A stretch of 64,000 nt of DNA from an uncultured Alphaproteobacteria bacterium (GCA_963732875.1 CAVTBD010000002.1:1442678-1506677); one strand, 5' to 3'. Positions 1 through 6,000 are shown, counted from the first letter of the stretch. A program made the numbers.

Positions 1-3000
1 CGGCGCGCTCGAGCAGACGGGCACCGCCCATCCCCCGTTCATCGACTTCCTTCTGGCCAAGCGGCCCGAGCTTTGCGTCTTCGTCGAGCCGACCTACGAC
101 TGGTACGACCCCTCTTCCCTTGTCGATCTTCTTGCGATCCGGGCGCATGAGCTGCGCAATTTCTGGCGAGGCTTCCAGACCCGCCTGGACAGCCTGCAAG
201 CACTCGGCCAAGCAGAGATCATCAAGCGCAAGCGGTCCTTTTTCGGCAGTCTCGTGCTGGAAGGCTATTCACAGACGATCTGGAGACCGACGCGCCGATG
301 ACCGGACTGTCCTATGGGCTTGAGGGCAAGAGAGCCCTGATCACCGGTGGTAGCCACGGCATCGGACTAGCCGTGGCGGACCTTTTGGCCCGTCTCGGCT
401 GTGATGTCGCCATCTGCTCGCGGACACAGGCCCGCCTGGACGCGGCGGCCGCACAAATACAGGCGCATGGCCATCACATGCTGGCGGTGGCGGCGGATGT
501 CCTCAAGGCCGAGAACATCGCCCGGGTGACGCGCGCGATCGACGATGCTTGGGACGGCGTCGACATTCTCATCAACAACGTCGGCGGTGGCGGCCGCTGG
601 GGCAAGCCCTCGATCGAGGAAACGGCGCCCGAAGTCTGGGATGAGGTTTACCGTAAGAACGCGGGCGCGGCCGTGTCCTTCACCCGTTGGGCGATTCCGA
701 GCATGCGACGGAACAAATGGGGCCGGGTCGTCGCCATCGCCTCTGTGCACGGCCGCGAAGGGTTGGGCCGCCCTTGGTTCACGATGGCCAAATCGTCCCA
801 GATCGCGATGATCAAGTCACTCTCGCGCATGCCCGACCTCGTGCGTGACGGGTTAACCTTCAACACCGTCGCGCCCGGATCCATCATGATCCCGGGTACG
901 GGATGGGAAGCCGAACGCGCCCGCGACCGCGCAGCCTTCGAGGAACGGATACGGGCGGATTATCCGCTCGGCCGCCTAGGAACGCCCGAGGAGGTCGCTA
1001 CAGTGGTCGCCTTCGTATGTTCGCGTCAGGCGTCCTTGTTGAACGGGGCGTGCATCCCGGTTGACGGGGGCGAGGGCCACGCCTTCTGACGCCCAGGCGC
1101 CGGATTCCCTATTTTTCGGCCGGAATGGCCGCAAGTTATCGCCGATGGAGACCGTCGCGCGGGCGGCATGACCGGGCGGCCTACCTGAGCGCCGCGGCAA
1201 TGTTCCCACCATCCACCGTAAGTACGGCGCCGGTCGTCTTTTCGGCAAGCGCCAGCTCGACGAAAGCCCGTGCGACATCGTCGGCGGTCACCTCGCGGCG
1301 CAACAGGTTGCCGCCCATATAGGCTTCGCGCGTGAGGCCGTGCACTTTAGAGCGTTCCGCGATCATCGCCTCGGTCAGCAGGCCGCTGCGGATTCGATCG
1401 GCATTGACCGCGTTGGCGCGGATGCCGTCGCGGCCGTAATCGACGGCATACTGGCGCATGAGCGCTAGTGTTGTGGCCTTGGGGAGACCATAGGGGCCGA
1501 AATCCGGCCCGGGGTTGACCGCCTGCTTCGAGGCATTAAATAGCAGAACCCCGCCGGTTCCCTGTGCCCGCATAATGGCGATCGCCGCCTGTGCAACGCG
1601 CTGGTGGCCATAAAAATTGACCTCGAAGCTGTCGCGAAGTATCTGCTCCTGCACCTCCCCGATGCGGCCCTGCCAGGCCCGCCCAGCGTTGGACACGACG
1701 ATGTCGAGGCCGCCGTAATCCCGAGCGATCTTGTTGAAGGCAGTTACCACGGATGCAGGCTTGGTTACGTCGCAGGCTACAGCGGCGCATTTGATATCGC
1801 GCGCCGCCGTATCCGCAGCCTTCCCGTCCACGTCCAGAATGACGACCTCTGCTCCTTGGGCCTTGAAAGCCCGCGCCGTCGCCCGGCCGATGCCCGACGC
1901 ACCCCCGGTGACCGCCACGATCTGGCGGGCAAGCGGCTTTTCCGCGCTCTTACCAAGCTTGGCCTGCTCAAGCGACCAGTATTCCATGTTAAATAGGTCG
2001 CGTTCGGGGAGCGCCTCATATCGACCGACCGACTCCGCGTCTGTAATCGTCTCCACCGTGCTGACAGCTATATCTGCGGCGATCCGAGCCGTGCCCTTGC
2101 CCGCGCCCACGCCAAACAGACCGAGGCCCGGCACCAGAAGGACGCGCGGCATGGGATCGAGCTCTATCTTGATACTCCCCACGCGGTTGTTGTTGCGCGC
2201 GAAATAGCCATGGTAGCGGGCCACGAACCCGGCAATGGCGCGATCCGCGCCGTCACGGAAGTCGTCAAGGCCATCCACCTTGGGTACCGGCAAGATAACC
2301 GGAACGTTCTTGGTTCGAAGTGTGTGATCGGGCGTCACCACGCCCTGCTGCGAATAGCGGGCGAGTTCGCGCCCGTTGACGTAGGCAAGGATGGCAGGGG
2401 AGACCCGGAAATCGAGCAGTATGCGACCCAAATTCCCCCCCGCACGCACCGCGCAGAGGCCGCGCAGGATGGGCGCCACCTCCTCCACTGGGGCAATTTT
2501 CGCGGGAAGGCGCGCGGCCGCAAAGACCTTGCGCCGGCCCCGCGCAATGCGGGCTTCCGCCCGCGACACCATCGCGATCATGCACTCATAGGCCTCGTGT
2601 GCAGTGGGACCGAAGGTGAAGATGCCGTGCTTTTCGAGGATCAGCCCTTTGATTGAAGTATCTTCTTCGAACACTTCAGCCGCCTTCTTCGCAAGCGCGA
2701 AGCCTGGCATGATGTAGGGCACGTAGCCCATGCAGTCGCCGAAGAGGTCGGCGCAGATTTTCTGTCCATCCGGCTGGTCGCTGATAGCTAGCACCGCCGT
2801 CGAATGGGTGTGATCGACGAATTTTGCCGGCAGGAAAGCATGCAGCAGGGTTTCGACCGACGGCGTGGGGGCCTGTGCATCGAGCAGGTTTATGCGCTGC
2901 GCATTGACCATATCCTCATCCGACAGTGAATTGAGGGTGCGCAGTTCGCGGATCGACTCCAGGCGGACGGCAGGTAGGCCCGCTGGCTCGATTTCGGCCA

Positions 3001-6000
3001 TGTCCCAACCGGAACCCTTGACGCAGAGGACGTCCGTATCCCGACCCATCAGGTCGGGCACAACGGTCTTGACCGACGTATTGCCGCCGCCATGCAGCAC
3101 CAGCGCAGGATCACGGCCGAGCAGGCGCGAGGTATAGACCCGAAGCGCCAGGTCGGCGTTGATCCCCTGGTTGCCGTAACGGGCAACGTAGGATTTCGCC
3201 TCTTTGTCGGACCACTTGCTCTTCATATCGTTTCTTTACCTCTTATCATGGTCACGATGATGCCGCCGCACCCACCGCGCGCTCGGGGAAGAGCGCGGCC
3301 AATCCCTCCGTCGAAGCTGGACATAGGCCACGTTCGGTAATCAACCCGGTGACCAGGCGCGCAGGCGTGACATCGAAGGCCGGATTGGCTACGGAGCTCG
3401 CCGGCGGCGTCAGCCGGACAGTAATCCTGCGGCCTGTGGCATCGCAGCCTTCGATGTGCGAAACCTCTTCGCCCGCGCGTTCCTCGATCGGAATCTGGCG
3501 CCCGTCGGCTAGCGCAAAATCGATGCTCGGCCCCGGCGCACCCACATAGAAGGGTACGCCATTGTCGACGGCCGCCAGAGCCTTGAGATAGGTGCCGATC
3601 TTGTTGCAGACGTCCCCATTGGCAGCAGTACGGTCGGTACCGACGATGCAAAGATCCACCCGACCCTCGCGCATTAGGTGACCGCCCGCATTATCGGCGA
3701 TCACCGTATGCGGGACGCCATGTTCGGCGAGCTCCCAGGCAGTCAGGCTGGCACCTTGATTGCGGGGGCGTGTCTCATCCACCCACACATGGACCGGAAT
3801 ACCAGCGTCATGGGCAGCATAGACTGGTGCCAGAGCAGTGCCCCAATCCACGGTTGCCAACCAGCCCGCGTTGCAATGCGTTAGGACATTGAGCCTGCGC
3901 CCCACCGATCCAGCAGCAAGACGTTCGAAGACGGCGCAACCATGTTCTCCGATGGAGCGGCAAATCGCGACGTCTTCATCGGCGACGGCAGCCGCTTCGA
4001 CAAGCGCCGCTGCGGCACGCTCTGCGGGCGGCAGGAGGCGGACCCTGCTGGACACGCGATTGAGCGCCCAAGCCAGGTTGACCGCGGTCGGACGGGTGGC
4101 ACGCAGCGCCGTCACCGCCGCCTCGAGCCCCGCGTCAGAAGCATCAGCACGCAAGGCGAGCGCGAGACCATAGGCCGCGGTCGCCCCGATCAGCGGCGCT
4201 CCGCGCACTTTCATCGTGCGGATCGCCGCAGCGAAATTGTCGAGAGTTGTAAGGCGGCACACTTCGAACGAATGGGGAAGCCGCGTCTGGTCGATAATCT
4301 CCACCGCCGCGCCGTTCTCCACCGGCCAGATCGTCCGAAAATGCCTGCCACCGACCTTCATCGCATCCCTCCTGCATGCATCCTCGTCAATGGGCACCGT
4401 CGTACCTATGTTACCGTTCCCGACCCCGTGATGCACCAAGCCAGACACGGCGATTGGTTCATGCCTTCGGCGCGACATCGGCCATGAGGTGGCGGCCAAG
4501 AACGATATAGGCCAAGGCAACGCCGCTCAGATGCACGAGACCGACGGCAAGCATTGGGCTGAACGGACCGGCCCACCGTAGGACCGCCACCAGCACCACC
4601 AGCTTGGCCAGGACCTCGACCGCCTTCAGACGCGCCAATCGGCCAACCCAGCCGAGGGAGTAAGCAAACGCATCTGGGACATAGGCCGTGGCCAGCCAAA
4701 ACAGCGACAGGCCCGCCAGCGCGTAGGGCCACCAGTTCGTCGGCGCACGGTCAACGCCCACCCATAGCCCCACCACCCAGCGGCCGAGGATGCCGTAACC
4801 GAGTCCGGCTGCCGCAGCGAGGATACGTATCAGTGTCAAGGTTTGACCATAGACCCGAAACAGCCGATCCCTTTGGCCGGCCTGCTGCATCATGATGATC
4901 TCCGGTTTGAGATGATCGACCATGCGCCATAACAGCAGCACCGCAACCTCGGCGACCTTCCAGGACAGCACGAATTGTGTCGTCGCCGCTGGCCCCAGCA
5001 GAAAGCCGATCAAGGGCACATCCGATGACATCAGCAGCACCAACATCCCATAAGCGAAGAATGCCCCGCCACTGCGCCCGATGATTTCCTTGCGAAACCG
5101 GGCCGACGCACCGCGGAAATGCGTCGGGCGCACCACGATGTGCAACCGCTTCCGCCGCGCAAAAATGGCCAGGGCCCACCCGGTCGCCGAACCGGCCGCA
5201 AGACAACCCATGACCCCGGGCAGGCCGCCATCGGATGACAGCCAGATGATCACGAGCGAAACTGAAACCAGCAGACTTACGACGTTCAGAGTATTGGTCA
5301 GAACCTGACGCCGCATCGCCACAAGAATCCAGAGCTCGACGGTCAAGCCCATCTGGCAAAGGAGATAGGAAGCAAGGCCGGCACAGAGTTGCGCCTGCGA
5401 CAAGCCCTGCCAGGCTGCGGCGCCGTCAGGCGAAGCGGTGACCTCCCGCGACGCCATAATTTCCAGCGCGGGAATCGCGGTGGCTACGGCGATCAGCGTG
5501 AAACCCGCGATCCCCAGATAGAGACTGGCCCCAAGGCGACCGCAAGCAGTAACGTCGTTCCGGGCAGCATAAGGCGCGAAAGCCACCAACACGCTGCCCT
5601 GCAGCCAACGGATACCCCAGTTGGCCATCGTCACAATGCCGAACACGATCATCAGTAGGCCGAACAGGTAGGTTCCGAGCGTCGATAAGTAGAACGGAAT
5701 CAAGAAGACCTGGAGGAGAATCTGGAGCAGGACGAAGCCGTAGCCCGACAGGACCGCCCCCGCATAATCCGGGTTGTTGCGTGCCTTCGACGACAATGCG
5801 CTTACCGAACGCCTTCCGCGCTCCAGTAACGACGGTTTCATGACAAGGCGTCCGCTCTCACCCTTGTTGTCCCGGGTTTGGCTGCCGGTTGCTCCGAAGA
5901 TAATATCATGGAGCGAAAAGCCCGCAGCTTTACCGCCGGTCCAGCAGGGTACACCGGCTCAACGTGCGGCGATGCGACGGCGCAAGCGACAAATTTCGCG

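Follow-up and report, generated by a model that had tools for sequence, protein, structure and literature searches.

What is the role of a gene pair in which an MtnA-type isomerase is followed directly by a class II aldolase fused to a short-chain dehydrogenase/reductase (SDR)? Such a pair occupies positions 1181-4361 of a 64,000-nucleotide stretch of DNA from an uncultured Alphaproteobacteria bacterium (GCA_963732875.1 CAVTBD010000002.1:1442678-1506677), to which we refer as the window. 5'-Methylthioadenosine (MTA) as well as 5'-deoxyadenosine arise inevitably as inhibitory by-products of S-adenosylmethionine (SAM) chemistry, and the dihydroxyacetone phosphate (DHAP) shunt ranks among the main bacterial routes for their removal. 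The shunt uses MtnP, or MtnN plus MtnK, together with MtnA and the aldolase Ald2; it also occurs as DrdK/DrdI/DrdA, and it is known from Rhodospirillum rubrum, Rhodopseudomonas palustris, extraintestinal pathogenic Escherichia coli (ExPEC) and Bacillus thuringiensis. All of the described clusters employ a standalone FucA-like aldolase, and the enzyme handling the toxic aldehyde is unassigned (PMC6079011; PMC12632272; PMC13474568). An initial annotation of the window had read the pair as a possible DHAP-shunt-like salvage variant. Operons of the type mtnP-(apt)-mtnA-fusion in related genomes, and an operon position shared with a standalone aldolase, support this reading, and we estimate the probability that the pair encodes a variant of the DHAP shunt at roughly 70%.

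Both genes lie where the initial annotation had placed them, on the minus strand and 25 nt apart. The upstream gene, mtnA (3252..4361), is predicted to encode a 369-residue S-methyl-5-thioribose-1-phosphate isomerase (Pfam IF-2B) that probably also acts on 5-deoxyribose-1-phosphate. Against the equivalog model TIGR00512 (salvage_mtnA, cut-off 279) the protein scored 415.7 bits, and against NF004326 it scored 477.7 bits. In contrast, it reached only 161.7 bits on TIGR00511, the ribose-1,5-bisphosphate isomerase model (cut-off 314.1), which rules out this alternative identity and upholds the earlier assignment to the MtnA type. Its nearest homologues are 69-77% identical and are named methylthioribose-1-phosphate isomerase in their sources. 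The sequence contains THCNAG and a second motif, which we take to bear the catalytic Cys and Asp of Bacillus subtilis MtnA. Note that the open reading frame (ORF; 3252-4520) opens at an upstream TTG, whereas homologues favor the ATG at 4361 (MKVGG...) as the start; this choice is backed by a Shine-Dalgarno sequence, AGGAGG, 6 nt before the ATG in the 97-nt intergenic region on the 5' side (4362..4458). In the 25-nt spacer between the two genes (3227..3251), AGAGG precedes the ATG of the fusion gene, and the arrangement looks bicistronic. A scan for consensus promoters and terminators yielded nothing exceeding shuffled sequences, and no Rfam match to a riboswitch was found 5' of mtnA or mtnP in the window and seven other loci.

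The fusion gene (1181..3226, minus strand) encodes a protein of 681 residues composed of three parts. The class II aldolase domain (residues 30-225; 2552..3139) matches Pfam PF00596 Aldolase_II with an E-value of 1.2e-24, and the classical SDR domain (residues 435-675; 1202..1924) matches adh_short and adh_short_C2. The middle region between them (residues ~226-430; 1937..2551) has no Pfam domain; two motifs within it, TPDH-x2-RTK (298-306) and EYWSLEQAKL (415-424), are invariant. Over residues 1-681 (model positions 1-685), the protein matched the equivalog model NF006192 with 1042 bits (cut-off 639); the name of this family, 'bifunctional aldolase/short-chain dehydrogenase', carries no assigned function. 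Scores on both equivalog models for the bifunctional rhamnose enzyme RhaEW fell below the cut-offs (TIGR02632, 480.2 against 567.75; NF006189, 441.7 against 634). A wider search of 1.84 billion cluster representatives returned 1138 relatives at E <= 1e-30, ten of which were classified with NCBIfam. Among these ten, membership of NF006192 reached down to ~39-41% identity, while the representatives passing the RhaEW models (P0370 and P0327; 975-1100 bits) were 33-35% identical to the window fusion.

An alignment of 43 fusion-family members revealed invariant residues in both domains: GGGN 46-49, S72-G73, S123, E125, H139, H141 and H200 in the aldolase domain, and G441-x4-I446-G447, D465, N513-A514-G515, S566, Y579 and K583 in the SDR domain. 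The glycine motif of the latter reads TGGASGIG, and D465 stands at the end of strand beta2. In class II aldolases, residues of these types serve as phosphate-binding residues, catalytic Glu and metal ligands, and in classical SDRs as cofactor-binding and catalytic residues; an Asp ending strand beta2 marks a preference for NAD(H) over NADP(H). The predicted catalytic residues are intact in both domains of the fusion. In a joint alignment across subfamilies, including the RhaEW type, the His residues of the aldolase domain were constant, as were D465 and the Tyr and Lys of the SDR domain; within the middle region, K306, E415, K423 and L424 were invariant and T298, P299, D300 and T305 nearly so. 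The AlphaFold (AF2) model of the fusion has a mean predicted local distance difference test (pLDDT) score of 83, with low confidence at residues 296-304 and 418-426. The closest match to residues 16-227 in both structure and sequence was 3m4r, an N-terminal class II aldolase domain of Thermoplasma acidophilum (E 6e-47, 40% identity, TM-score 0.91 normalized to target length), which differs in being a domain fragment alone, from a conserved but uncharacterized protein. RhaD and other class II aldolase structures matched the aldolase domain at E ~0.06. For the SDR domain, Foldseek against the PDB returned generic NAD-dependent SDRs with a TM-score, again normalized to target length, of ~0.85. 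A full-length structure of the fusion family was not found in the PDB, and the Foldseek matches, limited to generic SDRs and 3m4r, gave no functional clue.

The genomic context of the fusion was analyzed in 80 species-level genome loci, taken from at least 596 relatives matched in a scan of a genome collection. The fusions at these loci, mainly from alphaproteobacterial metagenome-assembled genomes (MAGs) and including those of Reyranella soli (NBRC 108950, L052), Enhydrobacter aerosaccus (ATCC 27094, L051) and others, are 58-76% identical to the window protein. Linkage was scored by tblastn with the window MtnA and one MtnP from the neighbors of a fusion locus (491 bits on NF006492, cut-off 437). 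In 38 of the 80 loci mtnA and/or mtnP was linked to the fusion, always upstream and on the same strand: both genes in 25, mtnA alone in 7 and mtnP alone in 6, the mtnP of these last six directly abutting the fusion. The mtnA gene was located within 3.7 kb in all 32 loci that carry it, with a gap of <=162 bp in 22. The 31 loci with mtnP in the fusion operon are joined by a 2-Mb metagenomic contig (L090) that preserves the order mtnP-mtnA-fusion. Adenine phosphoribosyltransferase (apt; NF002634, 270 bits) was found upstream of the fusion in 11 loci, between mtnP and mtnA wherever mtnP was present, and petABC, which encode cytochrome bc1, frequently stand ahead of the mtn set. The recurring unit petABC-mtnP-(apt)-mtnA-fusion is a coherent MTA module, with phosphorolysis, adenine recycling and isomerization followed by the fusion. 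Neither mtnA nor mtnP was detected in the remaining 42 loci, 8 of which have <3 kb of upstream sequence.

In a neighbor-joining tree of the fusion proteins, the mtn-linked loci were scattered over all major branches, the deepest included, and the unlinked loci fell in patches. In a low-GC organism whose fusion and MtnA are 41% and 51% identical to those of the window, mtnA ends 4 nt before the fusion. A linkage that is spread over the whole tree, and is kept both in the metagenomic contig and in the low-GC organism, greatly exceeds what coincidence or recent common descent would produce.

We also compared the genes that follow mtnA in genomes that lack the fusion but encode close homologues of MtnA. 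In Bosea (L086), petA-petB-petC-mtnP-apt-mtnA is followed by a standalone class II aldolase of 214 residues, and in a MAG (L087) petABC-mtnP-x-mtnA is followed by a standalone protein of 231 residues matching only Pfam Aldolase_II. In L036, L007 and others, the fusion takes the last position after petABC-mtnP-apt-mtnA. The Bosea aldolase is FucA-like, scoring 198 bits on the fuculose-phosphate aldolase subfamily as against 75 bits on MtnB (cut-off 137); this type of standalone aldolase is called Ald2 or DrdA in published DHAP-shunt clusters (PMC6079011; PMC12632272). No counterpart of the two standalone aldolases was found in 82 fusion loci or in the window. Synteny that is shared up to the last gene, together with the lack of a standalone aldolase in the fusion loci, places the fusion in what appears to be the Ald2 slot, the Ald2 type being represented here by the Bosea FucA-like protein. 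The aldolase domain of the fusion aligned to the Bosea protein with 24% identity over 140 residues of the catalytic core, superposing the PSxE motif of the catalytic Glu (E125), HxH (H139, H141) and HG (H200), which read PSSE, HTH and HG in Bosea. By this reference the domain appears to be a distant RhaE-type paralogue and not Ald2/DrdA-like. The pair resembles the DHAP shunt in having an MtnA-type isomerase followed by a class II (metal-dependent, DHAP-forming) aldolase in one operon, with mtnP upstream in relatives, but differs from it in the RhaE-type aldolase domain, the additional region of ~200 residues and the fused SDR. If the assignment is correct, one class II aldolase lineage would have been clearly displaced by another at a fixed operon position.

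Note that in Azospirillum formosense and A. halopraeferens (L083-L085), close MtnA homologues, 70-72% identical to that of the window, are encoded by isolated genes; neither an aldolase nor mtnP nor the fusion lies within 7 kb of them. In these cultured species the step after MtnA is encoded elsewhere or absent.

The only characterized relative of the fusion is RhaEW (YuxG of B. subtilis and Caur_2283 of Chloroflexus aurantiacus), which has the three-part architecture, the length and the catalytic and NAD-binding residues in common with it. Rodionova et al. reported that RhaEW converts L-rhamnulose-1-phosphate to DHAP and L-lactate with NAD+, is inactive with NADH and forms no DHAP without NAD+, a precedent for aldol cleavage coupled to NAD+-dependent aldehyde oxidation; its orthologues were described as always being located within rha loci (PMC3870299). 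The window fusion, in contrast, shares only 33-35% identity with proteins of this type, lies below the cut-offs of the RhaEW models and has mtn genes in place of rha genes as neighbors.

From these comparisons we infer a pathway in which MtnP, presumably encoded elsewhere in this genome and encoded within the operon in many relatives, would phosphorolyze MTA or 5'-deoxyadenosine. MtnA (3252-4361) would then convert the resulting (methylthio- or deoxy-)ribose-1-phosphate to the ribulose-1-phosphate form. The N-terminal domain of the fusion, replacing the FucA-like Ald2/DrdA, would act as a 5-(methylthio)ribulose-1-phosphate or 5-deoxyribulose-1-phosphate aldolase, generating DHAP and either 2-(methylthio)acetaldehyde or acetaldehyde. 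The C-terminal domain, a putative NAD-dependent aldehyde dehydrogenase (or reductase), would convert the released aldehyde on the same polypeptide. In the oxidative version of this scheme, the product would be (methylthio)acetate from MTA or acetate from 5'-deoxyadenosine, and oxidation would draw the reversible cleavage towards its products and prevent the escape of the reactive aldehyde. Alternatively, the aldehyde would be reduced to 2-(methylthio)ethanol or ethanol.

Several points weigh against assigning the pair to the DHAP shunt. The case is built from genomic and sequence comparison. Among the 72 loci with >=3 kb of upstream sequence, 34 show no mtn gene within 10 kb, and the fusion loci of Terasakiella, Gemmatimonas and Xanthobacteraceae are unlinked to mtn genes. 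Within the window, mtnP, mtnK and mtnN are missing, as are apt, Ald2 and rhamnose genes: tblastn with MtnP produced no match in the 64 kb, and no PNP_UDP_1 or APH-type family was present among the ~60 ORFs scanned. This confirms the initial annotation, which had seen no kinase or phosphorylase here; the upstream search for mtnP that it proposed failed in the window and succeeded in the 31 related operons. The GC content at third codon positions (GC3) of the pair is island-like (0.69-0.75, compared to ~0.9 for core genes), and the pair adjoins a glycan cluster. Furthermore, the specificity of the aldolase at C4 must have changed relative to RhaE. L-Rhamnulose-1-phosphate has the 3R,4S configuration, whereas the ribulose-1-phosphates have the FucA-type 3R,4R configuration. 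Because the C4 configurations of the substrates are opposite, as established aldolase stereochemistry would imply for the proposed one, the NF006192 domain must differ from RhaE in this respect. Finally, the direction of the SDR reaction is not readable from the sequence.

With respect to this direction, we lean towards oxidation, at roughly even odds and by analogy, because RhaEW oxidizes with NAD+ and the NAD-type residue D465 is invariant. The initial annotation had suggested that the SDR could reduce the aldehyde: the presence of a fused SDR with intact residues was borne out, and the RhaEW precedent and the NAD-type D465 speak against the reductive direction. In cells, an NAD-type cofactor site would favor oxidation, and RhaEW fails to use NADH, producing lactate with NAD+ (PMC3870299). 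Reduction to 2-(methylthio)ethanol or ethanol, by which the fusion would be the 'missing alcohol dehydrogenase' of the DHAP-ethylene and methanethiol shunts, is possible and takes the smaller part of the probability given to the shunt as a whole. SDRs are often reductases, and the catalytic tetrad fits either direction. Moreover, the metabolite observed in the Ald2-using species R. rubrum and R. palustris is 2-(methylthio)ethanol (PMC5893883), and the responsible reductase is unidentified (PMC5893883; PMC13474568).

The surroundings of the pair could point to a different role. Upstream of mtnA, on the same strand, are genes for a 460-residue membrane protein without family match (possibly a flippase), a family 2 glycosyltransferase (GT2) and an ABC-2 permease. 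They belong to a polysaccharide cluster of ~25 kb (4459-29424) that includes genes resembling those of the heptose pathway, namely an SIS protein (GmhA-like), a PfkB-cytidylyltransferase (HldE-like), a nucleotidyltransferase-HAD protein and two epimerase/dehydratases. Export and transfer functions are represented by ABC-2 Wzm/Wzt-type proteins, an ABC ATPase and GT2s. The cluster further contains an SDR, an E1 alpha/beta thiamine pyrophosphate (TPP) pair, a methyltransferase, a radical SAM-SPASM protein, a NUDIX protein and UDP-glucose-dehydrogenase-family and transaldolase-family proteins; several further ORFs (8702-9586, 9583-11493 and 15431-16840) had no family match. The genes at 298-29424, with mtnA and the fusion included, have a GC3 of 0.59-0.78. 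A sharp break follows at ~29500, and the genes from 29652 onwards, among them those for the core proteins ClpB, PrmC, PrfA, HemA, HisS, IspG, RodZ, PtsP, aspartokinase and phosphoadenosine phosphosulfate (PAPS) reductase-family proteins, are mostly at 0.8-0.92. This pattern suggests that the left 29 kb of the window is a horizontally acquired or variable island. The nearest relative of the pair (L088, 1-16233; proteins 77% and 76% identical) is located inside another sugar-modification cluster, in the order DegT, GT61, ATP-grasp, GFO, Fe-ADH, radical SAM, Methyltransf_21 (FkbM-type), mtnA and fusion, with the radical SAM and Methyltransf_21 genes on the same strand as the pair.

Might the pair therefore serve the glycan cluster, by clearing 5'-deoxyadenosine and MTA formed by radical SAM and SAM-dependent enzymes, or by running in the synthetic direction, such that aldehyde and DHAP would be joined to a ketose-1-phosphate, which would be turned into an aldose-1-phosphate and finally into the NDP-sugar from which an unusual deoxy- or thio-sugar derives? 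The neighboring cluster with its methyltransferase and radical SAM-SPASM protein, the lowered GC3 common to pair and cluster, the position of the L088 pair behind radical SAM and Methyltransf_21 genes, and the heptose-type genes upstream of mtnP-mtnA-fusion in another locus (L049) would fit such a role. However, the clusters of the window and L088 have no gene in common besides the pair, and across the family the partners of the fusion are mtnP and apt, beside petABC, and not glycan genes. By-product clearance would merely be a special case of the DHAP shunt, and nothing positive was found for the synthetic direction; on balance we regard a dedicated glycan function as unlikely. The pair of this small lineage has moved out of the petABC-mtnP neighborhood into variable glycan islands with radical SAM genes, a placement that may be incidental or may reflect local clearance of SAM by-products. 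Less probable still is an ordinary RhaEW-type enzyme for the catabolism of L-rhamnose or another 6-deoxyhexose, next to mtnA by accident. The identical domain architecture and the 480 bits on TIGR02632 are in line with it, as is the name that the Joint Genome Institute (JGI) gives to family members, 'rhamnose utilization protein RhaD (predicted bifunctional aldolase and dehydrogenase)'. The scores nevertheless remain under both RhaEW cut-offs, the identity to RhaEW-type representatives is low, and linkage to mtnA or mtnP recurs throughout the family. No rhamnose isomerase, kinase or transporter gene was found in the window or the inspected loci, in agreement with the initial annotation, which had remarked that the context differs from that of rhamnose loci. 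Given the absence of rha genes and the scores below the RhaEW cut-offs, rhamnose catabolism was rejected.

A more specific version of the DHAP-shunt reading concerns the fate of the acid. The NF006192 fusion might constitute an oxidative DHAP shunt, from MTA to DHAP and (methylthio)acetate instead of 2-(methylthio)ethanol, in which, in some lineages, a 2-oxoglutarate dioxygenase of the TauD/TfdA family encoded nearby would cleave CH3-S-CH2-COOH to methanethiol and glyoxylate, a thioether counterpart to the action of TfdA on 2,4-dichlorophenoxyacetate (2,4-D). We consider this combination improbable. If true, it would provide the missing aerobic connection between the shunt and the formation of methanethiol and methionine. 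The link between TauD and the fusion is weak, because identity among the dioxygenases from the Reyranella clade, L090 and L081 is only ~30% and genomes of this kind often contain TauD paralogues.

Genes of this type were observed near the fusion in three settings. At nine loci of the Reyranella/Enhydrobacter clade (L018, L031, L045, L051-L054, L056 and L074), a TauD/TfdA-family gene on the strand of the fusion begins 14-99 bp downstream. In L090, a TauD-family gene (10056-10958) is convergent with the fusion at a distance of 19 bp, beside an Ssu/Tau-type ABC transporter. A further TauD-family gene is located near the fusion in L081 (6280-7173).

A full-text search of the literature, with North et al. 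2017 and 2020 outside its reach, revealed no fused aldolase-SDR in the metabolism of MTA or 5'-deoxyadenosine. A 2018 review describes the aldehyde-handling enzyme as unknown (PMC6302742), and a 2026 review says the same of the enzyme that acts on 2-methylthioacetaldehyde in the DHAP shunt (PMC13474568). Beaudoin et al. noted that the occurrence of the known clusters falls well short of universal, that many genomes have no recognizable aldolase and that other strategies must exist (PMC6079011). The fusion in MTA salvage is probably an undescribed version of the DHAP shunt that also handles the aldehyde product. If so, the shunt would be extended to no fewer than several hundred species, alphaproteobacterial and others, as judged from the genome matches, and a functional name would become available for a large family now labeled 'bifunctional aldolase/short-chain dehydrogenase' or mislabeled as a rhamnose enzyme. 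The fusion would also provide an assayable candidate for the aldehyde step, and an acid product instead of an alcohol would alter the recovery of sulfur and carbon. Such a finding extends a known pathway and does not introduce a new principle.

Two other candidate partners of the fusion were considered and rejected. An SDR gene on the plus strand of the window (298-1089) is convergent with the fusion, and its start forms an ATGA overlap with the end of a truncated ORF (2-301, plus strand) that has no family match. This SDR does not closely match the one that lies downstream of the L088 fusion and is not kept at other loci, excluding a conserved convergent partner. Likewise, a link to a TauE/SafE exporter was dismissed, with only two loci showing such a gene and the two sequences being unrelated.

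Elsewhere in the window, consecutive ORFs at 50683-52442 match PAPS_reduct (50683-51459, and residues 176-400 of 51099-52442); the ORF boundaries are uncertain in this high-GC stretch. They probably represent cysH followed by a cysD-like gene of a sulfate-assimilation operon.

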